Virus record (IMG/VR): IMGVR_UViG_3300046534_001186
Location: 1 to 56,356 of that record
Direction: 5' to 3' (one strand)
Length of the DNA stretch: 56,356 nucleotides
DNA from: a virus
Taxonomy: Duplodnaviria > Caudoviricetes
Below are positions 1 to 51,246 of the stretch, piece by piece; position 1 is the first letter of the stretch, and every line of letters starts with the position of its first letter. The notes beneath the pieces are model-generated. The model was not told where the DNA came from and ran no database searches. It saw nothing but the letters and a program-made list of their open reading frames with translations. The translations under genes and the position numbers were made by a program.

Positions 1-2805
1 GCATGATGCAGGAGACGCTGTCGTCTGCAATTACCGCTGACTCTACACGAGAAGCGCCCGACAGACCCCAGAAAGCTGCAGCCCCACTAACCGCGAGCCA
101 GCTAGCTATATACAATCAGATCGCTCACCACTTAGGCCAGCCCGAACTAAGGCACGTCAACAATGAGAGCGCGCTCAGGCTAGCGATCGACGCCCAGTAT
201 GAGCTGGCCACAGATCACCTACTAGAGAAGATCTCACCTAAGTTTGCTACTGAGACAGCCACGCTAGCGGATGCCGACGACAGTGCGGTTCATGGGTTTG
301 ATAACGTATTCACGATCCCGACTAACATGGTCACGCTCTCAGGCGTGTGGTCGGACGAGAACCTAGATTTTCCTGTTCTGAGGTACCTGCACGAAGACAC
401 CCAGATCTTTGTGGACGCGTTCGATCCAATTTACATACGCTACGTTAAGAAAGAAGTTGCCGAGACATCGTGGACGCCCACGTTCAAGCAGGCGCTAGCC
501 GCGCACATTGCTACGCGGCTATCGGGTGCGTTCGCTGCAGAAAGACTAGAGTACCTGTCCGGCATGATGCAGGAGACGCTGTCGTCTGCAATTACCGCTG
601 ACTCTACACGAGAAGCGCCCGACAGACCCCAGAAAGCTGCAGCCCCACTAACCGCGAGCCAGCTAGCTATATACAATCAGATCGCTCATCATTTAGGCCA
701 GCCTGAACTAAGGCACGTCAACAATGAGAGCGCGCTCAGGCTAGCGATCGACGCCCAGTATGGGCTGGCTACGGATCACCTACTAGAGAAGATCTCACCC
801 AAGTTTGCCACTGAGACCGCCACGCTAGCGGACGCGGCGGACAGTACCGTGCACGGGTTCGACAATGTATTCACGATCCCGACTAACATGGTCACGCTCT
901 TAGGCGTGTGGTCGGACGAGAACCTAGATTTTCCTGTTCTGAGATACCTACACGAAGACACCCAGATCTTCGTGGACGCGTTCGATCCCATCTATATACG
1001 CTACGTTAAGAAAGAAGTTGCCGAGACAGCGTGGACGCCTACGTTCAAGCAGGCGCTAGCCGCGCACATTGCTACACGGCTATCGGGTGCGTTCGCTGCA
1101 GAAAGACTAGAGTACCTGTCCGGCATGATGCAGGAGACGCTGTCGTCTGCGATCACCGCTGACTCCACACGAGAAGCGCCCGACAGGCCTCAGAAAGCCG
1201 CAGCTCCGTTAACCGCGAGCCAGCTAGCTATATACAATCAGATCGCTCATCACTTAGGCCAGCCCGAACTAAGGCACGTCAACAATGAAAGCGCGCTCAG
1301 GTTAGCGATCGACGCCCAGTATGAGCTGGCCACAGACCACCTATTGGAAAAGATCTCACCTAAGTTTGCCACTGAGACAGCCACGCTAGCGGACGCGGCG
1401 GACAGTGCGGTTCATGGGTTTGATAACGTATTTACGATCCCGACTAACATGGTCACACTTCTAGGCGTGTGGTCGGACGAAAATCTAGACTTTCCCGTTC
1501 TGAGGTACTTACACGAAGACACAGAGATCTTCGTGGACGCGTTCGACCCCATCTACATACGCTACGTCAAGAAAGAAGTAGCCGAGACAGCGTGGACGCC
1601 TACGTTCAAGCAGGCGCTAGCCGCGCACATTGCTACACGGCTATCGGGTGCGTTCGCTGCAGAAAGACTAGAGTACCTGTCCGGCATGATGCAGGAGACG
1701 CTGTCGTCTGCGATCACCGCTGACTCCACACGAGAAGCGCCCGACAGGCCTCAGAAAGCTGCAGCCCCACTAACCGCGAGCCAGCTAGTTATTTACAATC
1801 AGATCGCTCATCACTTAGGCCAGCCCGAACTAAGGCACGTCAACAATGAAAGCGCGCTCAGGTTAGCGATCGACGCCCAGTACGATCTGGCCACCGACTA
1901 TCTGCTGGAAAAGATCTCACCCAGGTTTGCTACCGAGACAACTACGCTAGCCGACGCCGGCGACAGTGCCGTGCACGCGTTCGATAACGTGTTCACGACC
2001 CCTGCCAACATGGTCACACTCTTAGGCGTGTGGTCGGACGAGAACCTAGACTTTCCCGTTCTGCGATATTTGCACGAAGACACAGAGATCTTTGTAGACG
2101 CGTTCGATCCCATCTATATACGCTACATCAAGAATGAAGTGGTCGAGACGGCGTGGACGCCTACGTTCAAGCAGGCGCTAGCCGCGTACATTGCTACACG
2201 GCTATCGGGTGCGTTCGCTGCAGAAAGACTAGAGTACCTGTCCGGCATGATGCAGGAGACGCTGTCGTCTGCGATCACCGCTGACTCTACCCGGGAAGCG
2301 CCGGTCAGGCCTCAGAAAGCCGCAGCGCCTTTGTCTGCGGAAAAGCTGGCTATATACAACCAGATCGCCCAGTCACTCGGCCAGAAAGAGCTGCGCCACG
2401 TTAACGACGAAAGTGAGCTGCGGCTAGCTATCGACAGTCACTACGCGATCATCAGAGATCAGCTACTCGAAACCATTAAGCCAAGATTTGCCACGACATT
2501 CGCTGTGCTCACAGACTCAGCCGACAGCTCCGTGCACGCTTTCGATAACGTGTTCACGCTGCCTACCGGCCTAGTCACGCTAGTCGGGGTGTTCTCTGAC
2601 ATCGAGCTAGACCAGCCGGTGACAAGATACCTGCACGAAGACACTGAGCTGTACGTTGCTAACTACCCGACTGTCTACTTAAGGTACATTCAGAACGAAA
2701 TCGCAGAAAGCGCATGGACGGCCACCTACAAACTGGCTTTGTCCGCTAAAATAGCTGCTCGCTTGGCGCCAAGGTTTGCGTTAAAGAATGAAGACCCGTC
2801 GAGCC
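1..2805 (+). repeat. 561-bp coding tandem repeat
   Basis: GCATGATGCAGGAGACG recurs at 1, 562, 1123, 1684 and 2245. Units are near-identical at first and diverge after ~2290. Confidence 0.97.
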
Positions 2806-3545
2806 CCAGCTACGCCTCTGCAGTCAAGTACTTAATGGCTTCTTTTGAGAACGAAGTCGTACGTGCCATGCAGGACGCCATGGTGGCAGACTCTATGATA
2901 GAGCCCCAGACGCGGCCAATAAAGGCCACTAGGGTTCTAGACGACGAGTACAGGGCTCTCTACAACAAAGCACTACAGATCCTCGGTCTCCCTCAACTGA
3001 CCAGCAACACCGACGAGTCGGCGCGCAAGGTGGCGCTCGACTACGCCATAGACAATAAAGCAGTCGAAACCGTGTTCGAGTTAATCTCGTGGGGGTTCCT
3101 GTACAAGCGTTTAAAACTCAGTGCCAGCGTATCGGAGATCCCGAGCTTCGGGTTTCAGTACGCGTTCGATGTGCCGGCGGATTTCATTCGGATAGATAGC
3201 GTCTCAGCCGACGAGTACTTCCGGCACCCTCAGGATTACACCAGAGAGGGCGACTTCTTCTACGCAGATGTGAAGGACCTGTACATTAGATACCTCTCAA
3301 ACGCTCAGGTAACCACCCCCGCCGTGTGGCCCGTCTATATTCACAATCTTGTTGCGGCGGAGCTGGCTCGCAACTGCTCAGGCGTGCTAGACGCCGACAG
3401 AGACAACGCTCGCATAATGTACCAAGAGTACAAAGATGAGGCCTACAACACTGACGCTCAGCGTAACCCACCTCAGGTCATAACCACCGGCAGTTGGGTC
3501 GGATCTAGAGCCAGTGGAACAACCCGACGCAACGGAAGGCCGTAG
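3..3545 (+). CDS. 3' part of tandem-repeat tail tubular protein A (T7 gp11/P22 gp4-like adaptor); 5'-truncated continuation of the ORF starting at 54301
   Basis: Six ~187-aa units. The last has the canonical adaptor motifs (LYNKALQILG, WGF..R, PSFGFQYAFDVPADFIR, YTREG..YADVKDLYIRY, C-terminal GSW..SR). It lies directly upstream of the nozzle gene. Confidence 0.85.
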   Translation: MMQETLSSAITADSTREAPDRPQKAAAPLTASQLAIYNQIAHHLGQPELRHVNNESALRLAIDAQYELATDHLLEKISPKFATETATLADADDSAVHGFDNVFTIPTNMVTLSGVWSDENLDFPVLRYLHEDTQIFVDAFDPIYIRYVKKEVAETSWTPTFKQALAAHIATRLSGAFAAERLEYLSGMMQETLSSAITADSTREAPDRPQKAAAPLTASQLAIYNQIAHHLGQPELRHVNNESALRLAIDAQYGLATDHLLEKISPKFATETATLADAADSTVHGFDNVFTIPTNMVTLLGVWSDENLDFPVLRYLHEDTQIFVDAFDPIYIRYVKKEVAETAWTPTFKQALAAHIATRLSGAFAAERLEYLSGMMQETLSSAITADSTREAPDRPQKAAAPLTASQLAIYNQIAHHLGQPELRHVNNESALRLAIDAQYELATDHLLEKISPKFATETATLADAADSAVHGFDNVFTIPTNMVTLLGVWSDENLDFPVLRYLHEDTEIFVDAFDPIYIRYVKKEVAETAWTPTFKQALAAHIATRLSGAFAAERLEYLSGMMQETLSSAITADSTREAPDRPQKAAAPLTASQLVIYNQIAHHLGQPELRHVNNESALRLAIDAQYDLATDYLLEKISPRFATETTTLADAGDSAVHAFDNVFTTPANMVTLLGVWSDENLDFPVLRYLHEDTEIFVDAFDPIYIRYIKNEVVETAWTPTFKQALAAYIATRLSGAFAAERLEYLSGMMQETLSSAITADSTREAPVRPQKAAAPLSAEKLAIYNQIAQSLGQKELRHVNDESELRLAIDSHYAIIRDQLLETIKPRFATTFAVLTDSADSSVHAFDNVFTLPTGLVTLVGVFSDIELDQPVTRYLHEDTELYVANYPTVYLRYIQNEIAESAWTATYKLALSAKIAARLAPRFALKNEDPSSPSYASAVKYLMASFENEVVRAMQDAMVADSMIEPQTRPIKATRVLDDEYRALYNKALQILGLPQLTSNTDESARKVALDYAIDNKAVETVFELISWGFLYKRLKLSASVSEIPSFGFQYAFDVPADFIRIDSVSADEYFRHPQDYTREGDFFYADVKDLYIRYLSNAQVTTPAVWPVYIHNLVAAELARNCSGVLDADRDNARIMYQEYKDEAYNTDAQRNPPQVITTGSWVGSRASGTTRRNGRP

Positions 3546-3547
3546 AT

Positions 3548-6500
3548 ATGTCCCGCACTCTTTACAACAAATTCAACCGAGGCGAGGTCGATGAGAAAGT
3601 CATGGCTCGCGACGACGTTGAAAGAATAGTCAACTCAGGCTCGCTAGTGGAAAACTTTACTCCGCTTAGAGCCGGTCCGATGCAGTACCGGCCCGGCTTC
3701 GAGTTCTCAGAGGCAGCCAAGCCCAACGAGTCGTACTACCTGATCCCATTTGTGGACGACGGGGAGAACCCCACTTTTCTTGAGCTGTCCCAGAGCGCGG
3801 CTAATCCCAGCGTAGAAACAGTCAGATTTATAGTCAACGATGCAGTGGCCACGGCCACTGCCACTGACGACACGCTTGCTAACGGCAGCTTCACCGATAA
3901 CATCGGCAGCTGGACGGCAGACCATGACGGGGCCGGAGCTGCGGCGTGGGACGCGGGGGGTAGAGCGAAACTAACTGGCGCCACCGCAAACGGTGCGTGG
4001 GGAAGACTCTACCAAACCGTGACCCAGTCTGCCGGCGAGAGAAGCATCAGGGTAGTGGTGGACAGCACCCCGATCCTAGTTCAAATAGGGACTGACGGCT
4101 CTCAAAGTTCTGACATATTTCAAGACGTACTGGGCTTAGGGATACACGTGCTCACCTTTACGCCGACCGACGATTACACAATTACGCTGTCTAATGACAA
4201 GCCGTACGCGGGCTACGTGTCCTTTTGCGACCATCTGGCCGCAGGGGCGATTGAGCTGTCCGGATCCATAGTCCTAGACACCACTACCACCGCTGGCACC
4301 CTGCAGTCGATACGGTACACGCAGGTCAATGACGTGTGCTTTATCACGGACGGGGCGTACATCACGGAGAGGCGGTCGTACCCGTTCTGGCTAATTAAGC
4401 GACGCGGGCTAAAGTCTTGGAGCTTTGAACTGCCCGAGCAACTAGACGGCCCGTTCGGTCCAATTAATATCACTGGCGTCACGCTGGCTGTGACTGCCAC
4501 TACTGGTGACACCACTCTGACTGCCAGCAGCGACTTCTTTAATGACACTGCCACTGACTACCGAGACCAGTATCAGATCGCTCACGGCGAGACGGCGGGG
4601 GTGTGCGAGATAACTTCGGTCACTAATAAAACTACTGCTCTCGTAAGAGTGCTGCGTGCGTTCGGTGCCACCACGGCTACAGCCGACTGGAATAAAGGGG
4701 AGCTGGGGATCACCACTCCTGGGCCTACGGCGTCTGAGATATTCGATGGCCGTCTTTGGTTAGCGGGGGGCGCTCGGCTTTGGGGGTCAGTGTCAGACAG
4801 ATACACCTCGTTCGACACCAGTCTGGACGGCAACTCCGCTGCAGTGTCAAAAACTCTTGGATTTGGACCAGTTCAAAACGTGTCTTGGCTTAGGGGGGGA
4901 GACATCCTGCTCATGGGGCTAAGCTCCGAGGAGGTGGAGGTTAACTCCAACGCGGACCAAGACGCTCTTAACGCGAATAACGCTCGGGTACGCAGGGCCA
5001 CTAATAAAGGCTCTGCCCGAGTAAGGCCTGAGGTCGTAGACAAGGTGGTCTACTTTGTTCAACGCGGGCTAAAGAAAATATTCGCACTTAGCGGGCTCCA
5101 GGGGGAGCAAGTGTCTGCCCAAGACACCACGATCCTGCACCCCAACATCACTAGCCCGGGCGTGCAGCGTATGGTGTACTCGAGCGAGCCCGAGCCCCGC
5201 ATGTATATTTTGCTAACGGATGGCAGCCTCAGGGTATTGCTATTTGACGAGGCGGAGGATGTCATCGCTTGGTCCCGAATCACAGTGGCAGGAGGAGGAG
5301 TAATTAAAGATATCGCTGCTTCCCCTACAACTGACGAAGACGCGGTAATGATAATAGTCGAGCGTGGCGGGGTAGCGTACATCGAGCGCCTCGCCAAGTA
5401 CTCAGAGTCGCTGGGTGGGCTCTCCTCTAGGCACTACGACAGCCATGTGGCGTTCGATGCGCCGGGTGGCACCCTAACGGGACTAGCGCACCTAGACGGA
5501 GTGCTGTGCCACGTCTGGGCGGACGGAGTGGAGAGACAGACAGTGACCCCCTCGTCCGGATCGGCCACTCTCGCGCAGTCAGGGTACGCCAAAGTTGTGA
5601 TAGGCATTCGACACACCGCTAAGTGGAAAAGCAACAAGCTGTCTCGTTATGTCGATAAGTCGGTCTTAAACTACCGCAAGCGAGTCGTGCAGATGGGGCT
5701 GGTCATGAGGTCCGTTGCGCTCCGTACCTTAAAGTACGGCGCGGACGAGCAGCACCTTAGCAGTATGCCGGAAACGGACCAAGGCAGGGCTAGGGCTCCA
5801 ACTGACGAGCCCATACCTTCTATAGTTGGGACAATCGTGGGTGCGACGGATGGAGCTATCAGCGTCCAAGAGATGCGGCTATTCGCTGGCACTGACAAGA
5901 CGTACCTAGTGGCTGCGTGTGACACCCTTGTGTCCGCCCCTAGCGCGCAGAGAATGCAGTTCTTGGCGTACTTAGACGGGTACATGTATAACGTGGGCGG
6001 CACTGACGTCAGTAATGGGAACCTCAAGGAGTTGTGGCGGTACGAGGTAGCCTCGGGTGCATACGACCAAATGGCCCCCGCCCCGAACATAGCAGTCGAG
6101 CACTCCGTGTGCGCCGGCGAAGGTAAGTTCATGGTGATGTCAGCGAGCGGCGGGTTTCAAGTGTACAACGTCTCGACCGACGCGTGGCTCGCATCCCCCG
6201 CCCAGCCGACTGCCGCTAGGAAAGAGGCAGCACTTGCCTACTACGATGGCAAGGTCTACTACTACGGAGGTAACAACGGGGGAGCGTCGAGCAACACTTG
6301 GGGGATATACGATGTGGGCGCCGACAGCTGGGACGAGACCGCGTATAGCGGCAGCCCCGAAACTAAAAGATCCCATTGCGCGGCAGCTCCTCAGTCGGGT
6401 GTCGGCGCAGGCAAAATCTATTTTTTTGGGGGACTCACTGGGGCCACCACTGACACTCGCAAGATGGAGATATACGACATTGGATCCAACACCTTCGGGA

Positions 6501-7918
6501 CTGCAATCGACGCCACTATTCCGACTAAGGCGTACGGCAAACTAGAAGCCACTGACGACGGAGAGTTGTACCAATGGGGCGGAGGTCCTCGCGTTGGCGC
6601 AGGGGATGCTTTGGTGTGGAAATTTAATATCACTGCGGGCACTTGGAGCGTAGTTAACGACGGCACAGGGGTCCGCCCTTTGATTAGTAGCTACCAGTTC
6701 GGGCTGGCGTTCGACCCAATCAACGGGGACCTCTACAAAAACGGGGGGTTGTCTATCGAATACATGAGCTCCATTAACCCCGACGGCAATCCTAACGGGT
6801 GGACCAACGACCTGTGGAAGTACAGCATCTCTACAAATTTGTGGACCGAACTTAAAAAAGAGGGGGAGCTAGCCCCTATATCTGGGGCCATCCGGATTGC
6901 GGACGTAACAGACCCTGCGGCGATGGTGTCGCTCTCTGCTTTAAACATTAGCTCAGGCACGGACGACTGCTTGGGGTACGGGGTCGTGACTGACCAAGGG
7001 TACGCCTACCTGAGAACTCGCGAGCACGACGACAGCACGCTCAACCGAGGGCTGGCCGTAGTCAACATACTGGATCCCTCCAATCCCACACAAGAGGCGT
7101 ACCTTGCCGGCTCCGTGCTCTCTGACGCGGGGAAGTGTATTGCTAAGCAAGGGGGCTTCCTATTCTTGGTGTCGTTAGTGACTGACGGGGTATTGGAAGT
7201 GGTAAAGGTAGACCCTCCCAGTGCTCCGGTACTAGAGGCGGTGACGCTGGACCTGGTTACCGTGTCCTCGAATGCTAACCCCGACTCAATTGCGATTAAC
7301 CAGTACTACCTGTATGTGCCTTGGGAAGGGAATCTGCATATCGTAGACATATCAGACCCTCGCAACATTTCGCTGAGCTCTAGGTTCAGCCTTCCAGTGG
7401 CAGCGGCTTCGCAGTGCCAGGTGGAGCGGAGCACGCTGTATGTGCTTGACGTTGTGGCGGGGACCGTGCTGGCGTACGATGTGGCCGACCCAGTCGCCCC
7501 AGTGCTGATAGGATTTATAACTGACACGGCGCTGGTGGGGGCTACAGACTTCATAGCGACCTCGCCTTGGCTCTACGTTTCGACGGCCACCACGGTGGTG
7601 GTGTTAGATTTCAGGGACCCCAGCGTTCCCCTAAAGTTTGCCGCGTATGCAGGTTTTACGGATTTGAACACTTTGACCATGGCGACCCCTAATGTATTAT
7701 TCGGGGGCAGCTCTACAGGAAAGGGGACCGTGTACGCAGCAGACCAAAGGTCGTGGGCGTATGTGGACTACGACGAGATGAGCTTTGCGTTCGACGGAAC
7801 GTACGACACGGACTCCAGAGTGCTTCTACAGGCCACGGGACCCGCCACTATAACCGCATTAACTTTAGAGATTGAAGATGTTGATCATGCGACCAATGGT
7901 AGCGAAAGATCTAACTGA
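3548..7918 (+). CDS. Tail tubular protein B / nozzle (T7 gp12-like) with inserted carbohydrate-binding-like, Kelch and LVIVD domains
   Basis: N-terminal FNRGEV..MARDD..ENF..GPMQYRPG; IRYTQVNDV; DGRLWLAG..LWGS; WSR; C-terminal FDGTYDTDSRV..PATITAL. Position follows the adaptor gene. Confidence 0.85.
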   Translation: MSRTLYNKFNRGEVDEKVMARDDVERIVNSGSLVENFTPLRAGPMQYRPGFEFSEAAKPNESYYLIPFVDDGENPTFLELSQSAANPSVETVRFIVNDAVATATATDDTLANGSFTDNIGSWTADHDGAGAAAWDAGGRAKLTGATANGAWGRLYQTVTQSAGERSIRVVVDSTPILVQIGTDGSQSSDIFQDVLGLGIHVLTFTPTDDYTITLSNDKPYAGYVSFCDHLAAGAIELSGSIVLDTTTTAGTLQSIRYTQVNDVCFITDGAYITERRSYPFWLIKRRGLKSWSFELPEQLDGPFGPINITGVTLAVTATTGDTTLTASSDFFNDTATDYRDQYQIAHGETAGVCEITSVTNKTTALVRVLRAFGATTATADWNKGELGITTPGPTASEIFDGRLWLAGGARLWGSVSDRYTSFDTSLDGNSAAVSKTLGFGPVQNVSWLRGGDILLMGLSSEEVEVNSNADQDALNANNARVRRATNKGSARVRPEVVDKVVYFVQRGLKKIFALSGLQGEQVSAQDTTILHPNITSPGVQRMVYSSEPEPRMYILLTDGSLRVLLFDEAEDVIAWSRITVAGGGVIKDIAASPTTDEDAVMIIVERGGVAYIERLAKYSESLGGLSSRHYDSHVAFDAPGGTLTGLAHLDGVLCHVWADGVERQTVTPSSGSATLAQSGYAKVVIGIRHTAKWKSNKLSRYVDKSVLNYRKRVVQMGLVMRSVALRTLKYGADEQHLSSMPETDQGRARAPTDEPIPSIVGTIVGATDGAISVQEMRLFAGTDKTYLVAACDTLVSAPSAQRMQFLAYLDGYMYNVGGTDVSNGNLKELWRYEVASGAYDQMAPAPNIAVEHSVCAGEGKFMVMSASGGFQVYNVSTDAWLASPAQPTAARKEAALAYYDGKVYYYGGNNGGASSNTWGIYDVGADSWDETAYSGSPETKRSHCAAAPQSGVGAGKIYFFGGLTGATTDTRKMEIYDIGSNTFGTAIDATIPTKAYGKLEATDDGELYQWGGGPRVGAGDALVWKFNITAGTWSVVNDGTGVRPLISSYQFGLAFDPINGDLYKNGGLSIEYMSSINPDGNPNGWTNDLWKYSISTNLWTELKKEGELAPISGAIRIADVTDPAAMVSLSALNISSGTDDCLGYGVVTDQGYAYLRTREHDDSTLNRGLAVVNILDPSNPTQEAYLAGSVLSDAGKCIAKQGGFLFLVSLVTDGVLEVVKVDPPSAPVLEAVTLDLVTVSSNANPDSIAINQYYLYVPWEGNLHIVDISDPRNISLSSRFSLPVAAASQCQVERSTLYVLDVVAGTVLAYDVADPVAPVLIGFITDTALVGATDFIATSPWLYVSTATTVVVLDFRDPSVPLKFAAYAGFTDLNTLTMATPNVLFGGSSTGKGTVYAADQRSWAYVDYDEMSFAFDGTYDTDSRVLLQATGPATITALTLEIEDVDHATNGSERSN

Positions 7919-8803: not shown

Positions 8804-10455
8804 TGCCCCAGATCCCTCGCGGCGCAGATATAAACAGACAGATCGGGTCTGGCCAGCAATCGGTCACTAGGCAAGACACGAGAGACGCGGGCGTGGGCAC
8901 GGCGCTGATCGCCGGCCAGCTAGAGCAAGTGGCTGACAATCGCAGCAGATACCAGCTGGCCCAAGCCAAAACCTCGTTTCTCACAGCTAAAGTTAAGCAG
9001 GACAACGCGTACAACAACGACGAGGATTATGCTTCTATCCCCACTCGGTACGAGAACACTATGCGTAGCGCGATAAGCGACGCGTCGCAGCTGATAGATG
9101 ACTCTCGAGTCCGAGCGATGTTCCAAGACGACTCGGAGCTGCAGTCCCTTAAAGGGTTTGAGCGGATTAGCTCTTTCGCTCGGGGTGTCGAGACTGACTA
9201 CCAGCGGGCCTACGTGAGCGACGGCCTTAAGAAGATTAGGGAGTCCGCACTCACCGGCGACGTGAGCGACTCTATGGCGGCGGCCAGCGAGCTAGTGGAT
9301 AGCGCAGTCGCCATGAACTATCTGTCCGCCGAGGAAGGCGAGTCGGCAATATCCGCGTGGACGGACGACACCTTGGTCTCTAAAATCAAGATGATGGAGC
9401 CGGAGGAACGGGTAAACTCGCTCAACCAAGAGTGGGCGAGCAGCATACCCTCAGATCTTAGGGTAGGGCTGCAGCGCGAGTCGGACGCCATGCTGCTAGA
9501 TTCGCGCGCGATGGGATTTGTGGACGAGCTGATGATCCAAGGCAAGGGCGACGAATACAGCATGGGCCAGATAAACTTAATCCCCGACCCAGATTTGAGG
9601 GCCGCAGCGGAAAGCAGGTACAAGACTGAGATAGGCACGCGCCGGACCCTATCCGCAGAAAACGACACTGACGACATGAACCAGTATTACGCGATGCTCC
9701 GAGACCCAGCTAACGCTAGCGCGGGACCCGGCGAGAGATTCACGTACGACAGTATCCCAGAGGACGTTCGCAACCAGTTCTCGGCAAACACTGTGGCATC
9801 TCTTCGAGCAGCAGAGGCTCAAGGCGTATCTGCCACAGCGCCTCGGACAGACTACCTGGTGCAGCAAGCACTGCACGACGCGGCACGGCTCGCTGACCGA
9901 AGTAAGGACTATACTCAGTTTCGCGAGCTGCTTAACTTAAGTCGTGGCTCACTGAGCGCGGGAGATAACAACCGGTGGTCCGAAGTGGCGTCTGCTGGGG
10001 TCGAGGGGCTAGACCCCGTGGTGGAGTCTTACCTAAACGATCAGCAGTACGTGATCGCTAGGCTCACGGATCAGCTAGGATCGGTCAAGCCTTCTGACAG
10101 AGGCAGAAAAGAAGAGGTTAACGACTTGGTCCTGAGATGGGACACACACCGCAATAACTACCAGAACTCAAACAAAGGCGAGGTCCCTAGCCCCGCGATG
10201 AGACAAGATTTTATGGACATTTTTCTCGAAGAAAGAGCTTTCAAAAAGCCGGCGCTGTTCGGGTGGATGGAGACCAATGTAAGGTCTGACTTTGTAAGCA
10301 TGAGTCCGGGCGACAAGAGCGCGTTCCTCGACACCCTACAGGCGTCAGACGAGGGTCGATTCAGCGCGGTGCTTAACCTCATGGGGGTGGAGAAGCTACA
10401 AGACATCGACGAGGCAGACTACGGCGACATCCTCACCCTGTGGGAGACTAAATAG
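8803..10455 (+). CDS. Internal virion (ejection) protein, gp15-like
   Basis: MPQIP start, helical composition, synteny. Confidence 0.65.
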   Translation: MPQIPRGADINRQIGSGQQSVTRQDTRDAGVGTALIAGQLEQVADNRSRYQLAQAKTSFLTAKVKQDNAYNNDEDYASIPTRYENTMRSAISDASQLIDDSRVRAMFQDDSELQSLKGFERISSFARGVETDYQRAYVSDGLKKIRESALTGDVSDSMAAASELVDSAVAMNYLSAEEGESAISAWTDDTLVSKIKMMEPEERVNSLNQEWASSIPSDLRVGLQRESDAMLLDSRAMGFVDELMIQGKGDEYSMGQINLIPDPDLRAAAESRYKTEIGTRRTLSAENDTDDMNQYYAMLRDPANASAGPGERFTYDSIPEDVRNQFSANTVASLRAAEAQGVSATAPRTDYLVQQALHDAARLADRSKDYTQFRELLNLSRGSLSAGDNNRWSEVASAGVEGLDPVVESYLNDQQYVIARLTDQLGSVKPSDRGRKEEVNDLVLRWDTHRNNYQNSNKGEVPSPAMRQDFMDIFLEERAFKKPALFGWMETNVRSDFVSMSPGDKSAFLDTLQASDEGRFSAVLNLMGVEKLQDIDEADYGDILTLWETK

Positions 10456-13400
10456 TGCCAATAACACCGGACCAGATTAGGCAGATGAAGCAGTTTGACA
10501 CCGACCGAGAGGCGGAGAACCTGCAGTCCAAGCTCAATGCGAGCATAGGCCGAGACCCCAGCAAAGACGCCGAGGTGTTGACCCTCAGTAACGAGACCCA
10601 GCTGCCGTTCGATGTGGTCGAAAGGAGGCTTCCCGAGATCCGCAAGCGCGGGCAGTCAGACCCGTACGACGCCAAGGGGCTGATAGCTAGCCACCCGCGC
10701 ACCGCGCAGTATTTGTCCTCGGGCCGCAATGCGTTGGCAGCTGCTCAAGACATCCCAGCGATGCGAGACCTCGAGGACGAACTGTGGGGCAAACGGAAAG
10801 GCACCCCGTTCTTGAAGAACACAGTGCTCGCCATGGGCGAGAGAACTAATGACCTCACTGGTAACCTTGTCGAGCTAGTGGGTAACCTCTATTCGGAGGT
10901 GTCGGCGTTCGACCCCACGATTGAGTTCGGCGAGGATGGAATGTCGTTTAACTTTATCGACGACTCTCCCCGAGACCCGAACGCGTTCCAGCGGGTAGGC
11001 AAAGCTGTCTCAGAAGGCAGCTTAGGGTACGTGCCCACCTTCACTTGGGAGAATTTGAAAGGCGACTTATCCGTGGCCAACTTGGCGGGGTACGTTGTGG
11101 AGACCGGCGCGCAGTCCATGGTGGACATGGCCGCGATGCTCACCACCATGCCGGCGTACCTAGCCAGCCGCACCGAGGAGATAGCTGAGAGCCGCGTAGA
11201 GAACATCGAGGGCCGAGATAACGTGACTCTGGCGGATCTAGCCGCGTCTGTGCCAACGGCGGTGCTAGTCAGCCTTATAGACCGGTTCTCTGCAAAAGGG
11301 ATACTGGGCCTAGCCGACGACGTACCTGTCGGCACGGGGTTTGGCTTCGCAGCTAAAGAAGTCGGGAAGAAAGGGGTTCTCGAGGGCGGCACCGAGTTTA
11401 TCCAAGAACAAATTGAATACGCGGGCGAAGTACTGGGCACGGACGTAGACTTCGACGCAATGGTCTCGCTCGATCGAGGCCTCGCGGGGGCGGTAGCGGG
11501 AGGCCCAATGGGCGCGACTATACGCACTCTGTCTCTGCCAGCTAACGCGCTTGCGGCTAGGGCTGAGAAAGAAGTATCGGTTCGAGTGGAAAGTGCGGTC
11601 GAGCAGGTGTCAATTGCTAACATAATTACGAAAATTAAAGGCATGAAGCTGTCGCAGTCAGCGCCCGCCGAGCAGCGCAAGTTCCTAGAAGGGCTGGACG
11701 GGGACCACCAACTCTACGTGACGCCCGAGGAGGTCTTGGCGGCTGCGGAGGAGGGGCTGCCTGTGCCTAAGGCGATGCTCGACCAGGCTACGAACAACCC
11801 GAGCACGGATGTGACTATCAAGGTCTCAGAGTTCGGCGCCGACGTGGTGTCTAACGAGCAGCTACTGGCTCGGCTAGAGACTCACATGAAGATGTCGCCT
11901 AACAGTATGACCCGCGCCGAGATGGACGCTAAGGACTCTTCTAAGATCGGGGACATGATGGCCCGCGCCAAGCAGGACTCAGAGCTAAGATCCGAAGCAG
12001 ACGCTATCCATGCGAGTGTGACGGACCAGCTCGTGGCGACTAAGCGCATGACTCGCGCCCAAGCGGCCAAGCAGGCCCAGCTGATACCAGCCTACGTGAC
12101 CACATCGGTCGAGAGGCTCAGAGAACGCGGCATAGACATCTCGGTGACTGAGATGTACGAGAAGATGAATTTTACCGTCGAGGCTGCTACGGCGCCCACG
12201 ACGAGGAAGTCCGGCCCCGAAGTATTGGCGCAATCGCAAGCCGAGGGCTATGAGGGCACCGACCCCGGGGAAGCCCAAGAGTGGGTGGACGGCGTTGCTA
12301 AGTTCGGGGCCGAGGGTATGACTACTGAGGCCCGCATGTCCCGTGCAGCAGAGATGGGGTTTGATGCTGATACTGTTTACTACCACAAGTCAAAGAATGA
12401 CTTTTCAGAATTTTCTAGGGATGTTGAATCTGGGTGGACGAATGATAGCAAAACAAATGGGATTTACTTTGCCAGCGACCCTTATTATGCAGGCATGTAT
12501 CCTGGAACTACTGTTTACCCTACATATTTAAAGAAGGGAGCAAGGATTAAAGACGTTAGCTCTAACTTGGAGCTATCAGACCAGCACAAAGAAACCAGAA
12601 AGGCTGAACAAGACGGATTTACGGCTGTAAGAATTACAGACAATTCTTTGGGTGAGTTTATTGTTTTTGACCCTTCCCAGATACGCTCAGTAAACGCAGC
12701 GTTTGACCCGGACGCATCTAGCTCGCCCAACATTCTGGCGCAAGGCCCCAACTCCGGGGACGGACAGACGTTAAAACAATCCGTAGACTTGAACGAGATC
12801 ACCGACAGCATGCAGGAGCTGGACCTGACGGTGCCGTTAGATAAACAGGGCGTGGATCCGAAGATAATCGCGCGTATTGAGAAACATGTAGGCGAGGATA
12901 TGCTGGCTGTGCTGGTCGAAAATGCCAACGCTGACATCGCGGACCTTACCGGTAGCGAGCTACACCAATTCATGGCGCGGATCTTGTCCGAGGGGTCGTT
13001 ACCCTACTACACGGATTCTGTGGGGGACCCCGACATCGATGCTGTCCGATACCTGCGCCGCATGGGCCTGTTCGTTGCAGCACGGGACGTATCCGACGAC
13101 GCAGCACTGTACCAAGAGGGGGAGAGCGGACCTACGGTGAAGGGCGAGCTGGAGTTCTTCTCGGACGACTCTCGCATAATTAAGCTGTTTGAGACATCCG
13201 ACGAGTCCACATTCCTACACGAGGCGGCTCACCTGTTCCTTGAGACAGAGAAACAGCTTGCCGCAGAGTTTGGGTTAGGCGAGAACCAGCAGTCGATCCT
13301 AGACTTCTTGGAGCTAGACTCGTTTGACAGCATTCCCGTAGAAAAGCACGAGCTGTTTGCTCGCACATTCGAGCAGTACCTGCGGACCGGTGACGCCCCA

Positions 13401-16400
13401 TCCCCGACCCTGCGCGACGCCTTTGTGGAGTTCGCGCGCTGGTTGTCTCGCGTGTACCAGTCGGCCCTAGCGCTGAACGCCCCACTCACTGACGAGGCCA
13501 AGGGGATGTTTGATCGGCTGCTAGCTACCCAGAAAGAGATCGAAGACTCCAAGACTGAGCCAGTGTGGGCGCAGTTCTTTAAGGACATAAAGTCGGCAGG
13601 CATGACCGAGGCCCAGTGGGCGAAGTACCAGGCCCAGGTTAAGAGAAAGTCCGAGAGAGCAGAAGGCTCGCTGTACGACAAATTGACCAAGCAGTACATG
13701 AGCCGGCGCACGACCGAGTGGAACCAAGAGAGGAAGCCATTGGTCGAGATGGCCATGGAGCGGCTCGAGGACTCACCAATCTACGGCGCCATCAAAGCGA
13801 TGAGGGAAGTGCCGCTGGACAGCGAGGCGCTTAAACCGTTTCTAGCGGGTAACCCTAAAGCTGCGGGTAGATTCATAGCGCTGCGCAAGGCTGACGGCTC
13901 GGGGATGGACCCCCGGCTGTACGTGGAGCAGTTCGGGTTTGAGTCTGTGGAGGCCATGGTCAACGCGATTACGAACGCGCCGGCTCTCAAGGTCGCGGCG
14001 ACCGCCGAGGCACAGCGTTTGATGATCAAGAAGTACGGCGACATCTTAAATGACGGCACGCTGGAGAAAGAAGTCAGGGACTCCCTACACAACGCCGAGC
14101 AAGCTAAGCTGCTGCAGATGGAGCTAGCTGCTATGGCTAGAAGGCGCCGGACCAAGGAGCCCCTAGACCTCAAGGCCCTGCGCTCTGACGCTAAAAAGAT
14201 CATAAGCCAGATGAGAGCTGCCGACATCCGCCCCGACAAGTTCTACAGATCCGAGGTTAGGGCAGCTGTCGCAGCTGGCAAAGCCAAGACCGCCGAAGAA
14301 GCGTACCAAGCCAAACTCCAGCAGCTGGCTAACCACTACCTGTACAAGGAGGCGCTGGCCGCTAGGCGAAACGCGGCCAAGTACCGCAAGCACATGTTTG
14401 GGGTGCTCAACCGTACCTATCGCACCAGCGAGGTGGCTAAAGAATACGTGCAGGAGATGAAGCAGCTCGTGCGCATGTACAACATGAAGACCCCCGACGA
14501 GAGGGATGCTGTAGCAGCTAAGTTCTTCACGTTCATGTCAGGCCAGCTCGAGGCGGGCGTGCCCATCGATCTCAAAGACCACAACTTGATATTGCTCGAT
14601 CACCGTAATCGCCTAGGGGGGTCTATCGATTTTAGCATGCCACTGGTGTCTGACTTGACGATGGACCAGCTGCGCTCGGCGTATGAGCAGCTAGTGCACC
14701 TCCGGCACATGGGGGGCGTAGAGGCTCAGAAAGAGAAAGCCGAACTAGTCGAGAAACGGCAGACATTAGTTGACGCGCTGCAAACGAAGATCTCTAAGGC
14801 CGCGAATAAGCGTCAGTACAAAACCGAGAAACAGCTAGAACGCGCGTCGGCCCCAAAGTCCTTGTTCTACAAACTGCCTTCTCTGCGCAACCTGATACGC
14901 GACCTAGACAACGGGGACGCAGGCGCGTTCGCCAAGCTACTGTGGACGCCCATCTACACCGCCGAGAACAAGAAGCTGTCGATCCATAAGGAGTGGTACG
15001 ACGAGCTTAACAACTTAATGACAGGTCCAGACGGTAAAGAGTTTGACCTCTCTTCGATTAACGACAATAAGGAGAGCCGCGTGACCATCCCAGGCACCGG
15101 TCTCTCCATGACAGCGCGAGAGCGCGTGATGCTGGCGTTGTACTGGGGCGAAGAGTACAGCCGCGACGCTGTGATCGATGGCTACCGAAAAGCCCCCACC
15201 GGCGAGATGGAACTAGACGAGGAGGGCAACTCCACTAAGATCAAAAAGAAGGGTGAGAAGACCGTCTCCGTCGAGAATGTAGAGGAGATGTTAGAAAATC
15301 TAACCGACCAGCAGATCGAAATTGTTAACAGGATCTGGCAATTCCACGACTATATCTCCGCCCCTCTGTTTGAGTCTGAGTACAAGCGGGGCGGCGTGGC
15401 GCCTGAGAAGATCCCAGCTGTCCCGTTCGAGATCAGGGGCAAGCCGATGAGAGGAGGGCACATGCGCCTGTACTACCACGGCCAGCCGACGATGGAACTC
15501 GCCGCAGAAGCTACGCTAATCTCAACTAATAACGTGACCCCGTCTAAGCACGGCTCTGTTTACGAGCGACTCGGATCTGGCGGAAAGAAAGTCAGCATGA
15601 ACATGGACAACATCTTCCGCAATATCACTGAGGCGATCCACAAGGTGGCCTACACTGACGCGGCTAGAGAGCTTAATCAGATTTACGCCCACCGCTCGAC
15701 CCGCGAGGCTATCACTGACGCTATGGGCCAAGGGTTCGAGCAGGCGCTGTTCGAAAACATCAGGGGGCTGGTGACGGACATGAAGGAGCCCCAAGGTGAC
15801 AAGTACATCGCCGCTGCGTCTCGCTGGCTGAGAACGTCAGCGTCGAGCATGTACCTGTCCTTTGGCGTTCGTAACATTGTGCAGCAGTTCGGCACGATCA
15901 TAACTGCAGTAGACGAGCTACCGGGCGCGAGCTACGCGGTCGCGGTGGCTGAGTTCGCTTCCGACTGGGATGGCAACACCGCGAAGGTTAATGAGCTGTC
16001 CCCCCAGATGGCGTCAAGGGATGTGAACCTCAACCGAGAGCACTCCGAGATGCTAGCCCGTGTGGACACAGGCACTAGGTTCGAGAAGTATGTGCAGGTG
16101 GCGAACCGGTACGGATTCAAGCCCCACGTGTTCATCGATGGCATGATCGCCTACCCCCTGTGGCTCAAGGTGTACAACAACGCTATCGAGCAGCACGGCG
16201 ACTTGGTCAGAGCGGCGTCTGAGGCGGACGTGTCCGTGGCGGAGACAGTGGGATCGGGGCTCGACATCAACATCGGCAAGTTCTTTAGATCCAACGAGAG
16301 CGAGTTCATTAAGCTCATGGGCCTGTTCGGGTCATGGTTTAACGGGGTAATATTTCAGAGGGCGTACAAGTCCACTGAGGGCGGGTCCAAGGTGGTCAGC

Positions 16401-16877
16401 ACCAAGGCGGCTAGGCAGCTAATCGCAGTTCCGTTTGCGCTAGCGGCGGCCACGCAGTGGCTAGTAGCTGACTTCCCAGACGAAGACGACGAGGAGGGGC
16501 TGCTGTCTTGGTCCGCGAGAACGTACCTGGGGTTTATGTCAGGCACGATCCCGATGTCGGGGATGTTCGTGTCGGAGATGAGAGGGTTTGGCGCCCAGTC
16601 CATGACCACATCAGTCGCGGGCAAACTGGCGCAGGGACTCACTCTGCCGGGGCGAGCGTTCGGAGAAGACTCAGAAATGACCGCCTCCGAGGGGCTCTAC
16701 GAGTTGCTCACTATCACTGGAACGGTCATGCCGGTGCCGGGGCTAGGCAACGTGACGAGGATGCTGCAGTACTATAATTCTCGTCAAGATGGGAACGAAG
16801 ACGAGATTGAGGATATACTAGGCTGGACGCAGGAGACCTACCAGGCTCTAGTGGAAGGCTCGGATAAAAATCGGTAA
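10455..16877 (+). CDS. Large internal virion (ejection) protein, gp16-like polyvalent protein with ART-like and zincin-like domains
   Basis: 2140 aa. Contains YYHKS..GIYFASD..GEFIVFDPSQIRSVNAAFDP (ART-PolyVal-like) and IIKLFE.SDESTFLHEAAH (HExxH). Synteny fits. Confidence 0.75.
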   Translation: MPITPDQIRQMKQFDTDREAENLQSKLNASIGRDPSKDAEVLTLSNETQLPFDVVERRLPEIRKRGQSDPYDAKGLIASHPRTAQYLSSGRNALAAAQDIPAMRDLEDELWGKRKGTPFLKNTVLAMGERTNDLTGNLVELVGNLYSEVSAFDPTIEFGEDGMSFNFIDDSPRDPNAFQRVGKAVSEGSLGYVPTFTWENLKGDLSVANLAGYVVETGAQSMVDMAAMLTTMPAYLASRTEEIAESRVENIEGRDNVTLADLAASVPTAVLVSLIDRFSAKGILGLADDVPVGTGFGFAAKEVGKKGVLEGGTEFIQEQIEYAGEVLGTDVDFDAMVSLDRGLAGAVAGGPMGATIRTLSLPANALAARAEKEVSVRVESAVEQVSIANIITKIKGMKLSQSAPAEQRKFLEGLDGDHQLYVTPEEVLAAAEEGLPVPKAMLDQATNNPSTDVTIKVSEFGADVVSNEQLLARLETHMKMSPNSMTRAEMDAKDSSKIGDMMARAKQDSELRSEADAIHASVTDQLVATKRMTRAQAAKQAQLIPAYVTTSVERLRERGIDISVTEMYEKMNFTVEAATAPTTRKSGPEVLAQSQAEGYEGTDPGEAQEWVDGVAKFGAEGMTTEARMSRAAEMGFDADTVYYHKSKNDFSEFSRDVESGWTNDSKTNGIYFASDPYYAGMYPGTTVYPTYLKKGARIKDVSSNLELSDQHKETRKAEQDGFTAVRITDNSLGEFIVFDPSQIRSVNAAFDPDASSSPNILAQGPNSGDGQTLKQSVDLNEITDSMQELDLTVPLDKQGVDPKIIARIEKHVGEDMLAVLVENANADIADLTGSELHQFMARILSEGSLPYYTDSVGDPDIDAVRYLRRMGLFVAARDVSDDAALYQEGESGPTVKGELEFFSDDSRIIKLFETSDESTFLHEAAHLFLETEKQLAAEFGLGENQQSILDFLELDSFDSIPVEKHELFARTFEQYLRTGDAPSPTLRDAFVEFARWLSRVYQSALALNAPLTDEAKGMFDRLLATQKEIEDSKTEPVWAQFFKDIKSAGMTEAQWAKYQAQVKRKSERAEGSLYDKLTKQYMSRRTTEWNQERKPLVEMAMERLEDSPIYGAIKAMREVPLDSEALKPFLAGNPKAAGRFIALRKADGSGMDPRLYVEQFGFESVEAMVNAITNAPALKVAATAEAQRLMIKKYGDILNDGTLEKEVRDSLHNAEQAKLLQMELAAMARRRRTKEPLDLKALRSDAKKIISQMRAADIRPDKFYRSEVRAAVAAGKAKTAEEAYQAKLQQLANHYLYKEALAARRNAAKYRKHMFGVLNRTYRTSEVAKEYVQEMKQLVRMYNMKTPDERDAVAAKFFTFMSGQLEAGVPIDLKDHNLILLDHRNRLGGSIDFSMPLVSDLTMDQLRSAYEQLVHLRHMGGVEAQKEKAELVEKRQTLVDALQTKISKAANKRQYKTEKQLERASAPKSLFYKLPSLRNLIRDLDNGDAGAFAKLLWTPIYTAENKKLSIHKEWYDELNNLMTGPDGKEFDLSSINDNKESRVTIPGTGLSMTARERVMLALYWGEEYSRDAVIDGYRKAPTGEMELDEEGNSTKIKKKGEKTVSVENVEEMLENLTDQQIEIVNRIWQFHDYISAPLFESEYKRGGVAPEKIPAVPFEIRGKPMRGGHMRLYYHGQPTMELAAEATLISTNNVTPSKHGSVYERLGSGGKKVSMNMDNIFRNITEAIHKVAYTDAARELNQIYAHRSTREAITDAMGQGFEQALFENIRGLVTDMKEPQGDKYIAAASRWLRTSASSMYLSFGVRNIVQQFGTIITAVDELPGASYAVAVAEFASDWDGNTAKVNELSPQMASRDVNLNREHSEMLARVDTGTRFEKYVQVANRYGFKPHVFIDGMIAYPLWLKVYNNAIEQHGDLVRAASEADVSVAETVGSGLDINIGKFFRSNESEFIKLMGLFGSWFNGVIFQRAYKSTEGGSKVVSTKAARQLIAVPFALAAATQWLVADFPDEDDEEGLLSWSARTYLGFMSGTIPMSGMFVSEMRGFGAQSMTTSVAGKLAQGLTLPGRAFGEDSEMTASEGLYELLTITGTVMPVPGLGNVTRMLQYYNSRQDGNEDEIEDILGWTQETYQALVEGSDKNR

Positions 16878-31045: not shown

Positions 31046-32011
31046 ATGGCTACAAATATATTAACACCAGTAGGCCGCTTGGTCGGGGGCTCGTTATCTA
31101 ACCCCCAGACTGAGGACTACTACGGGGCGCCCCTCACCTACAAGAAGGGCGCCAATGTGGGCCAGCCGAGAGTCGAGTACTTCATCGCGCTGGCAGTCTC
31201 TAAGAATGAGCCTGGCGCCAACGAGCTGTTCGCCGTTATGAATCAAGAGGCGCAGACCGGCTTTCACAACAACGAGAGCCAGCGTGCGGACTTCGCGTGG
31301 AAGTTCCTAGACGGCGATGTTGCTGTCGATAAGAACCAGAAGCCGTACAGCTTGCGTGAAGGTTACGCAGGTCACTACGTGTTCCGGTTCACAACGGGAT
31401 TCGCACCTAGCTGCTTCGCGAACAACGGCACCGGCCAGATCAATGAGATCCCTGCCGAGGAAGTCAAGACTGGGTACTTCGTCAGAGTGTCTGGCTCCAT
31501 AGCCGCCAACGGGGACTCGGGCAAGCCCGGTCTGTACATGAATCTCAACATGGTAGAGCGCGTGGGCTACGGTGAAGAGATCCGCACTGGCCCTAACCCC
31601 AACGACGTGTTCGGACAGCAAGCCCAGTTGCCACAAGGGGCCTCGAGTACACCGTCGGCACCTCAAGGCCAGTTCGAGCACATGGCTCAGAACCAGCAGC
31701 CGCAGGGCAACCAGTACCCGCAGGGCAACCAGCAGCCGCAGGGCAACCAGTACCCGCAGGGCAACCAGCAGCCGCAGGGCAACCAGCAGCCGCAGGGCAA
31801 CCAGCAGCCTCAAGGTAACCAGCAGCCGCAGGGCAACCAGCAGCCTCAAGGTAACCAGCAGCCGCAGGGCAACCAGCAGCCGCAGGCTATGCAGCAGCCG
31901 CAGGGCAACCAGCAGCCGCAGGCTATGCAGGGTATGCAGGGTATGCAGGGCAACCAGAACGGCGTGCCGACTCAGCCTAATCAAAACTTTAATCAGCCTC
32001 CTAGCTACTAA
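31046..32011 (+). CDS. ssDNA-binding protein (DUF2815-like) with Gln-rich tail
   Basis: TPVGRLV..DGD..Y.GH..G...Y.NL..V...GE.I; lies between the Cas4-like gene and polA. Confidence 0.8.
   Translation: MATNILTPVGRLVGGSLSNPQTEDYYGAPLTYKKGANVGQPRVEYFIALAVSKNEPGANELFAVMNQEAQTGFHNNESQRADFAWKFLDGDVAVDKNQKPYSLREGYAGHYVFRFTTGFAPSCFANNGTGQINEIPAEEVKTGYFVRVSGSIAANGDSGKPGLYMNLNMVERVGYGEEIRTGPNPNDVFGQQAQLPQGASSTPSAPQGQFEHMAQNQQPQGNQYPQGNQQPQGNQYPQGNQQPQGNQQPQGNQQPQGNQQPQGNQQPQGNQQPQGNQQPQAMQQPQGNQQPQAMQGMQGMQGNQNGVPTQPNQNFNQPPSY
31691..31958 (+). repeat. 18-bp coding tandem repeat (NQQPQG)n
   Basis: AACCAGCAGCCGCAGGGC and variants, about a dozen copies. Confidence 0.95.
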
Positions 32012-45512: not shown

Positions 45513-45857
45513 GGCCCGAATAAACTCTGCCTTTACTCGGGCCTAGCATTCGGGCCACCTATATCTTGTTGATATCTAAAGAGAATCCGTAAAAGTGGCC
45601 CGAAGGCCCGAATAAACGCACTCTCAATCCCACACAGCTGGCACAGCTAGTGCTGCTGCTGGTGCTGGTGCGCGCTGCTGCGCTGCGCTGCTGGTGGTGC
45701 TGCGCAGCAGCGCTTGGTTTTGTTGATGGGTGGTTTTGGCTCTAATGGTGGCCTTTATGCCTCTTTATACCCCTACTAGACTAATAAGGGTATATAAAAG
45801 AAGGGGTTAGGGGCCTCGGGTCTTGTGGCCCGAATAGGTGGCCCGAATGGGCCCGAA
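45513..45857. repeat. GGCCCGAA iteron-like cluster
   Basis: Direct copies at 45513, 45596, 45604, 45827, 45840 and 45850; inverted copy at 45549. Confidence 0.8.
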
Positions 45858-46202
45858 TGAGAATAGAGGGGTATCGGGCCGACCCCCTGTGGTTTACACG
45901 CGCTGCTGCGTGTTGCTGCGTCCTGCTGCTGGTGCTGGGGGAGCGCTAAGCACGCAGGGGGTCTTAAAACGTGGGGCTGCTGCGCGTGCGTGCTGCTGCG
46001 CTGCTATCAATAGCCTGTGGTTGCTGCGCGCTGCTGCTGGTGCTGGTGCTGCTGGTGCTGCTGGTGCTGCTGGTGCTGCGCTGCTGGTGCTGCGCGCTGC
46101 GCTGCCATCAATAACTTGTGGTTGCTGCGGGTGCGTGCTGCGCTGCGGGATCTGCTGCGGGTGCGTGCTGCTGCGCTGCGCTGCGGGATTTGCTGCGCGC
46201 TG
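45650..46202 (+). repeat. Non-coding (GCT)/(GCTGGT)/(GCTGC) low-complexity tract
   Basis: Ten GCTGGTG copies, all on the plus strand. Confidence 0.85.
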
Positions 46203-50959: not shown

Positions 50960-51246
50960 GCTTAGTGCCGGAAGCATTCAAGTCGGCGTTGCTCAACGCG
51001 CAGGAGGTGTACGCGCTCCAGTCTTTAGAGGAGGGCACTGCGGACGTGTACGCTCAGCGGCTAGCGCTTAGCGCAATTTTGAACAAACTGTGCCGCGTGT
51101 ACGATCAGCACTATGTGCCAGGCGACAGAGAATCGACCACGTTTCTACTTGGAAGGGCGTACCCTGGCCAAGAAATAATTAAGCATCTAAGGATTAACCC
51201 CACACAACTTAAAGCACTCGAAGAGGCAAACAAGAATGGAAATTGA
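50956..51246 (+). CDS. Bbp19-like protein
   Basis: YVPGD...TF..GR...G..I motif; between portal and scaffold. Confidence 0.65.
   Translation: MSLVPEAFKSALLNAQEVYALQSLEEGTADVYAQRLALSAILNKLCRVYDQHYVPGDRESTTFLLGRAYPGQEIIKHLRINPTQLKALEEANKNGN

Follow-up and report, generated by a model that had tools for sequence, protein, structure and literature searches.

Podovirus adaptors are taken to be one small protein that forms one ring. To our knowledge, the only known long barrel of such rings is that of crAss001, where the rings are encoded by separate genes, and it is described as a crassvirus hallmark. Here, we analyse a virus genome of 56,356 bp (Duplodnaviria; Caudoviricetes), the IMG/VR record IMGVR_UViG_3300046534_001186, the whole of which is the window referred to below. 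Both ends of the record fall inside one gene, and we find that this gene encodes ten, possibly more, adaptor domains of the T7 gp11 type fused in one chain, which may stack as rings into an elongated tail barrel.

In T7, as described in sections of PMC6702177, gp11 forms a 12-fold ring under the portal, with a helix bundle that lines the channel and with gp12 bound below, and the C-terminal helix of gp11 points to the portal and embraces it. The structure 8CK1 is the adaptor gp46 of phage Carin-1 (sections of PMC13730344). The crAss001 barrel, 23 nm in length, comprises five stacked dodecameric rings built from four paralogous ring proteins, one of which forms two successive rings, and for podoviruses other than crAss001 one ring is stated (sections of PMC10172136). 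An initial annotation of our locus had noted that crAss-like phages stack several rings from separate genes, and the same source confirms this.

The units described here resemble T7 gp11, Carin-1 gp46 (8CK1), LME-1 orf17 (9EFK) and KP32 tail tubular protein A (5MU4) in protein family, in fold and in a gene position just before the nozzle. Those adaptors are single-domain chains of 181-243 amino acids (aa) that form one dodecameric ring, whereas here ten domains are fused and only the last carries the C-terminal arm. The likeness to the crAss001 rings R1-R5 (gp43, gp40, gp35 and gp34) lies in an adaptor-like fold and in the presence of several paralogous units per virion, and the relation to the crAss proteins is by fold only. 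The crAss001 proteins come from separate genes, share 15-31% identity and make a fixed set of five rings; in contrast, the array occupies one frame, its units are up to 98% identical, and their number within the clade varies from 2 to at least 10.

The record is typed 'linear' in IMG/VR and looks complete (CheckV 100%). On the plus strand, an open reading frame (ORF) at 54301-56355 begins with ATG at 54301 and is open at its 3' end (685 aa, 76.5 kDa as present), while the ORF at 3-3545, also on the plus strand, is open at its 5' end and reaches a stop at 3545 (1180 aa, 131.3 kDa as present). The array holds no other long frames. A codon begins at base 56356, which is identical to base 426, and bases 1-2 complete a codon, so the frame runs unbroken over the contig break, as the initial annotation had proposed. 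A direct repeat of 561 nucleotides (nt) is present in five copies at the start of the record and three at its end, in agreement with the annotated 561-bp period, and all ten annotated YN motifs were recovered, at 54325, 54919, 55480, 56041, 111, 672, 1233, 1794, 2355 and 2961. An eleventh YN, at 3444, lies inside the C-terminal arm and starts no unit. The array is laid out as follows, in the order in which it would be translated.

54301-56356, plus strand: 5' part of the adaptor gene, a 3'-open ORF with the start codon, units 1-3 whole and unit 4 cut by the contig end; four phrog_394 stretches.
54301-54894, plus strand: unit 1, 198 aa, divergent N-terminal unit that shares 30% identity with a central unit and clusters with first units of relatives.
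54895-55455, plus strand: unit 2, an internal unit of 187 aa with 61% identity to a central unit; its sister is unit 2 of the five-unit relative P0001.
55456-56016, plus strand: unit 3, an internal unit of 187 aa with 63% identity to a central unit.
56017-56356, plus strand: unit 4, first 113 aa, the rest falling in the contig break; it shows 8 differences from unit 5 in 339 nt.
1-86, plus strand: C-terminal portion of a unit of the central type, with its linker, which in the simplest reading completes unit 4; the first 127 nt of the record equal 562-688.
87-647, 648-1208, 1209-1769 and 1770-2330, plus strand: units 5-8, four near-identical central units of 187 aa each, with 92-100% protein identity.
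2331-2936, plus strand: unit 9, an internal unit of 202 aa that has a 15-aa insertion and shares 66% identity with a central unit; its sister is unit 4 of P0001.
2937-3545, plus strand: unit 10, 202 aa and the stop codon, the sole unit with the full C-terminal arm; modelled by AlphaFold2 with a pLDDT (predicted local distance difference test) of 92.1, and placed in the clade of last units.
3489-3542, plus strand: the C-terminal arm, GSWVGSRASGTTRRNGRP, which aligns with the P.GSW..AR motif of single-domain relatives.

When the record was scanned with one query unit, all ten candidates could be scored, with identities of 100, 98, 97, 92, 91, 66, 63, 61, 32 and 30%. The units in the middle of the array are thus nearly alike and those at its ends divergent, which had also been noticed at the outset. 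The initial annotation had further placed a GSW..SR arm on the last unit only, and this is what we see: GSWVGSRASGTTRRNGRP ends unit 10 alone, and the motif P.GSW..R is confined to that unit. In units 1-9 just the beginning of the arm (D..E.P) is present before the next unit follows, and the central units terminate in STREAPDRPQKAAAP, followed directly by the LT..YN of their successor. The linker motif E-P-x-x-R is kept in 40 of 44 two-unit rows, and the internal units retain all of the nearly invariant core residues of the adaptor family.

Family membership was established by several searches. The family phrog_394 ('tail protein', 190 positions) gave four stretches in the 54301-56355 piece and six in the 3-3545 piece, and together with the unit search this assigns all ten of the ten units, by sequence, to the T7 gp11 or tail tubular protein A family. 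A profile made from seven array units and 49 single-domain relatives was compared with the PDB. It matched the Carin-1 'connector protein' (8ck1_E, expectation value E 1.4e-36) and LME-1 orf17 (9efk_T, E 1.3e-18), and, with weaker scores, Kp9 and KP32 tail tubular proteins A; all six matches with E no higher than 1 are to chains of 185-329 aa, each matched over a single stretch. Pfam provided no family for the units: DUF7842 reached 37.7 bits summed over the 3' piece (cut-off 27) with no single stretch passing, and other families fell below their cut-offs.

Fold models cover units 9 and 10. The AlphaFold2 model of unit 10 (pLDDT 92.1; predicted template modelling score, pTM, 0.81) shows helices, a beta domain, further helices and a short C-terminal helix. 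This is the fold of the adaptor family, an up-down helix bundle into which a beta (fibre-dock) domain is inserted. Its best Foldseek match is Carin-1 8ck1_E (E 3e-10, template modelling score, TM, 0.68), and the podovirus adaptors found are those of Carin-1, LME-1, PhiM1, P-SCSP1u, E1004, T7 (gp11; chains 7ey7_N, 7box_N and 6r21_M), HRP29, KP32, A4, Kp7, Kp9 and SU10. Vertex and tail-barrel chains of crAss001 were also matched (7qoi_FS, 7qog_B and 7qoj_F), with lower scores (TM 0.33-0.43). For a model of units 9 and 10 together (pLDDT 91.1, pTM 0.70), as for unit 10, the top matches are podovirus adaptors, all with a probability of 1.00, and no PDB chain was found by Foldseek that spans both of its units. 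The gp11-type identity claimed by the initial annotation is thus upheld by the Carin-1 gp46 and T7 gp11 matches; a gp4-type match, which it had also named as a check, did not appear, as P22 gp4 is absent among the matches listed for either model. The conserved linker and the pTM of the two-unit model suggest that the junction between units is fixed rather than floppy. A complex prediction with two copies of units 9 and 10 scored 0.00 in both of its control-free runs, a value that speaks neither for nor against binding.

The terminase, portal, scaffold-like and capsid genes precede two small ORFs, after which come the adaptor, the nozzle (phrog_376) and the internal virion proteins; from capsid to nozzle, this is the order of T7-like modules. 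Sequence family, fold and gene place together identify the units as gp11-type adaptor domains at the normal adaptor position. Two of the neighbouring genes are referred to below.

3548-7918, plus strand: gene for a tail tubular protein B-like nozzle, whose C-terminal extension contains Kelch and LVIVD; phrog_376 E 4.6e-87, Pfam Kelch and LVIVD.
52330-53160, plus strand: major capsid protein (PF19821 E 2.6e-20; phrog_3437), which defines the clade of relatives (53 loci).

The linkers and the gene order both bear on whether the chain is a polyprotein, cleaved at the linkers into single adaptor domains that form an ordinary or mixed ring. A cleavage site in the linkers is possible, since these are short, rich in Pro and Ala, and conserved. 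However, portal, scaffold-like and capsid genes are consecutive, and because no protease gene is seen in this head module, processing to monomers is unlikely. Twelve adaptor domains suffice for one virion, and multiplying them gains nothing obvious; moreover, diverged end units in a conserved order would make little sense if the pieces mixed freely. We therefore regard cleavage as highly improbable.

Fused adaptors are not peculiar to this record. A phmmer search of 1.84 billion representative proteins with one unit gave 228 matches, and the best 150 of these 228 were re-scanned with the unit profile. Among them, 61 proteins have one unit, 37 two, 25 three, 15 four, five have five, five have six and one has 16, in a list that is ordered by summed score, so that long forms are over-represented, and in which a few rows are fragments. 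A search with the capsid protein gave 53 IMG/VR loci at 58-85% capsid identity, 41 of which hold an adaptor gene just downstream. The gene is complete in 34 of these: none has one unit, 25 have two, four have three, three have four, one has five and one has six. The nearest relatives (80-85% capsid identity) have 3, 4, 5 and 6 units. When metagenome contigs were queried with aligned first units, 52 ORFs were obtained, 42 of them complete (19 with one unit, six with two, 13 with three, three with four and one with five); several of these contigs are identical to IMG/VR ones, so the two sets of counts overlap. Across the searches, complete five-unit genes are L013, P0001, P0002, P0045, P0152 and P0153. 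The form with the most units, P0041, is a metagenomic protein of 2416 aa with 16 shorter (~150 aa) adaptor-like units. In the related IMG/VR and metagenome loci scanned, no second adaptor ORF was found. In short, the array is more general than the initial annotation knew, and fused forms are a family trait.

The only name that any of these proteins carries is 'hypothetical protein', and one of them lies in a metagenome-assembled genome labelled Flavobacteriales bacterium. No fused form was found by tblastn in 50,697 phage records: a two-unit query from the array matched nine records, each covering one unit only (42-44% of the query), and neither P0028 nor P0041 had a match there. P0041 was also absent from IMG/VR in a single-protein scan. 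Scans of this kind, with the last unit against viral contigs and with units 1 and 2 against metagenome contigs, returned zero loci, whereas alignment or capsid queries did find loci. The profile and Foldseek searches revealed no solved PDB structure of a fused multi-domain adaptor, and a literature search on fused or tandem adaptors, in which supplements were not covered, found nothing relevant. Judged from these searches, a fused multi-domain adaptor appears to be undescribed in the PDB, the phage records and the literature searched.

The count of ten must be read together with the contig break. The terminal 115 nt of the record are identical to 312-426 and the initial 127 nt to 562-688; both contig ends thus lie inside exact repeats, and the break is an assembly stop within the repeat, with a loss of at least 138 nt (46 codons). 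The simplest closure is an added copy of 427-561 (135 nt), which gives exactly 10 units and a chain of 1,911 aa. The annotated 'at least 10' is correct for the contig. Seven of the 41 IMG/VR loci also run off the contig inside the adaptor gene (L009, L011, L012, L017, L021, L026 and L051). The repeats seem to regularly break assemblies of this group, and higher unit numbers may be under-reported as a result.

These breaks raise the question of whether the number ten is inflated or wrong, the short-read assembler having threaded together unit variants of co-occurring strains or walked a cycle. Such an error is favoured by the position of both contig ends within the repeat, by the exact repeats of 179, 127 and 115 nt within the array, by the seven related loci that likewise end in the gene, and by the fact that the largest complete relative among the IMG/VR loci has six units. 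However, the units are distinct, with mainly synonymous differences (synonymous divergence, dS, 0.29-0.58 among units 5-8), junctions between one central unit and the next occur within the contig and so are real in the reads, and many other contigs carry complete multi-unit genes. For the same reasons the repeat is not an assembly artefact, a point on which the initial annotation had been right. Read evidence came from Logan contigs, whose depth is a poor measure and gives no copy number. In run X1, unit-specific contigs have depths of 18.5-27.2, close to the 23.1 of a single-copy 10-kb flank contig and not a fraction of it, and a piece common to several units stands at 87.8. A difference between units 5 and 4 (224 versus 56154) occurs in X1 in two contig forms, with depths of 19.8 and 26.4. 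Together, these values are a weak hint that all units belong to one genome, with about one unit end missing. Logan bins 1-134 and 1073-1206 are uncovered and thus uninformative, and runs X2 and X3 hold small shares (2-3 short pieces at a depth of about 2) from which no habitat is inferred. All told, an inflated number seems to us improbable, and it would leave the kind of finding unchanged.

The unit counts also speak to how the domains could be arranged. The units might lie laterally in one 12-domain ring shared by 12/n chains, n being the number of units per chain; the initial annotation had offered the extreme case, a single-chain ring with an invariant 12 units. Within the clade, fused genes most often have two units (25 of 34 complete genes), and a two-unit form would suit a 12-to-6 symmetry step to a hexameric nozzle. 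The numbers 2, 3, 4 and 6 all divide 12, and the array could hold 12 units with two hidden in the gap. However, n = 5, 10 and 16 do not allow a single ring to be split over 12/n chains, and all three occur, in complete five-unit genes, in the array itself and in P0041. The common n = 3 likewise defeats a mix of lateral pairs and stacking. The variation among the nearest relatives shows that there is no invariant number, and the depth of the shared piece, rough as it is, fits about one missing unit end rather than two extra units. The single-chain ring is likewise not supported, given 2-6 units in relatives and that 5 does not divide 12. We thus consider a lateral ring very improbable. Stacking permits any n, as is observed, and a single 12-domain ring does not; if every unit is to lie in a 12-fold ring, no other arrangement accommodates all the values of n observed. 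Variable unit number in related genomes was the test that the initial annotation had named for stacked rings, and the 2-6 units of complete genes answer it in their favour.

How the units are related to one another was assessed in a quick maximum-likelihood tree of 101 units from the array, 16 loci and 10 proteins, with units of fewer than 100 profile positions dropped. Last units fall together, 25 of 27 in one clade (support 99) that includes unit 10 of the array. First units cluster as well (four changes, versus 24 in shuffles), and internal units group with the first-unit type. Units 1, 2, 9 and 10 of the array pair with units 1, 2, 4 and 5 of P0001, units 4-8 all derive from its unit 3, and unit 3 of the array has no partner there. 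Other relatives (L060, P0004, the L013 group, P0045 and P0027) show internal expansions of their own. On this tree, then, first and last units are orthologous across relatives and internal units have been expanded independently, indicating that the ends are specialised and the middle is expandable; the annotated specialisation of the end units is borne out in this respect.

The central units have not been copied recently. A comparison of units 5 and 6 gives 38 differences in 561 nt, of which 32.5 are synonymous (dS 0.29; nonsynonymous divergence, dN, 0.013), and dN/dS is 0.02-0.09 across central pairs, which indicates that strong purifying selection maintains each central unit. We also see that DNA identity between central units, at about 88-93%, lies below their protein identity of 92-98%, the differences being nearly all synonymous. 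This codon divergence could reflect old copies under strong constraint, or selection that guards the array against recombination.

In the stacked arrangement, one chain of ~1,900 aa would carry ten adaptor domains on short conserved linkers, and twelve chains would stand side by side so that each domain position makes its own dodecameric ring. The n rings, stacked, would form a long barrel from portal to nozzle. The last unit, with its portal-embracing arm, would be seated on the portal, the first would dock the hexameric nozzle, and the internal units would act as spacers. The domain count in the gene would then set the length of the barrel: at ~4.6 nm per ring (23 nm for five crAss001 rings), ten rings would span ~46 nm by analogy, and the length could be altered through unequal recombination in the middle of the array. 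The portal-directed C-terminal helix of T7 fits the survival of a full arm on the last unit alone. Ring formation by every unit, vertical stacking, orientation and an effect on tail length are all steps we infer. The net charge of the units (-5 to -15) is compatible with an electronegative channel and does not separate the models. If stacking holds, there is a likeness to tape measure proteins, where the length of one product sets tail length and tandem repeats tune it (compare PMC13585406). A tape measure, however, is extended, mostly helical and inside the tube, whereas the array units are globular adaptor domains, and the putative ruler would be the wall itself. Twelve chains that stack n dodecameric rings into a long barrel, with a ruler role, make the best fit to the data, and we judge the chances of this being right to be about even.

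Several points weigh against stacking. T7 gp11 is monomeric without the portal, and its portal contact exceeds its contact with ring neighbours (sections of PMC6702177); as gp11 needs the portal to form a ring, portal-distant rings would need some other template. No other protein of the virion module scales with unit number. A candidate for such scaling, the internal virion-type protein at 10455-16877 (2140 aa; phrog_9880 E 1e-141), was rejected: its length is 2081-2248 aa in complete relatives (G001, G003 and G004) with two or four units. In the divergent internal units, the beta (fibre-dock) domain is best conserved (61-79%, versus 46-56% for helices 3-4), and this could point to an outward binding role. 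No solved structure offers a precedent for a tube of 12 covalent strands and 120 domains, and the copy number comes from a short-read assembly with exact repeats of 179 and 127 nt. Regional conservation was also tried as a test of ring versus arm. The four central units vary at 18 positions, 12 of which fall in the beta domain, and as central and divergent units are contradictory, the test was not used as support.

The conservation of the beta domain among divergent internal units would suit a different arrangement, in which only one unit per chain, most likely the arm-bearing last one, sits in an ordinary dodecameric ring. The others would then form twelve beaded arms, a collar or a coat resembling a sheath, and they might dock fibres or bind to the surface of the host. 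Beaded arms permit any unit number and agree with a portal arm on the last unit only, nothing else in the virion module tracks n, and accessory collars that encircle the adaptor are known in A1002, DEV and GP4 (sections of PMC13730344). However, the first units are as conserved and orthologous as the last, which suggests a fixed partner at the far end, such as the nozzle. The retention by internal units of all nearly invariant core residues likewise speaks against beaded arms, and a short conserved linker with a two-unit pTM of 0.70 is atypical of a loose string of beads. On balance, beaded arms strike us as unlikely, while deserving serious attention.

More broadly, the relatives may represent a widespread, unannotated lineage of environmental podoviruses in which twelve copies of one fused chain make a long tail barrel, and in which tail length equals domain count (2-6, at least 10, and 16) and evolves by internal gain and loss. 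The low dN/dS (0.02-0.05) would then mean that the rings are kept alike by selection, with DNA identity lowered against collapse of the array. We put this forward tentatively, with somewhat less than even confidence. If it is true, a covalent adaptor array of variable number would be a third way to set tail length, beside tape measures and extra ring genes, and a short-tailed phage could lengthen its tail stepwise by simple duplication. The natural series with 2-6 and at least 10 units is suited to a comparison of length with domain number. The repeat array also accounts for the assembly breaks at the adaptor gene in this phage group, and a name can be given to hundreds of proteins now labelled hypothetical.

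The nozzle gene downstream of the array (3548-7918) encodes 1456 aa, with a Kelch beta-propeller and LVIVD repeats behind the phrog_376 core. Nozzles are 875-949 aa long in relatives with 2-3 adaptor units and 1475 aa in those with 4 units. The long nozzle may be a lineage effect, or it may reflect a tie between a long neck and a receptor-binding tip.

Other repeats occur elsewhere in the window. The N-terminus of the scaffold-like ORF 51236-52153 includes PPAVVPPEGT three times, owing to a perfect 30-nt repeat (2.8 copies) at 51272-51354. An 18-nt tandem repeat at 31691-31950 (12.9 copies, 86% match), followed by a 9-nt repeat, lies inside the ORF 31046-32011, where it encodes a repetitive peptide; this ORF adjoins the DNA polymerase gene. 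Finally, short ORFs on both strands are overlapped at 45651-46202 by simple repeats rich in TGC and by a 101-nt repeat (2 copies, 80% match).

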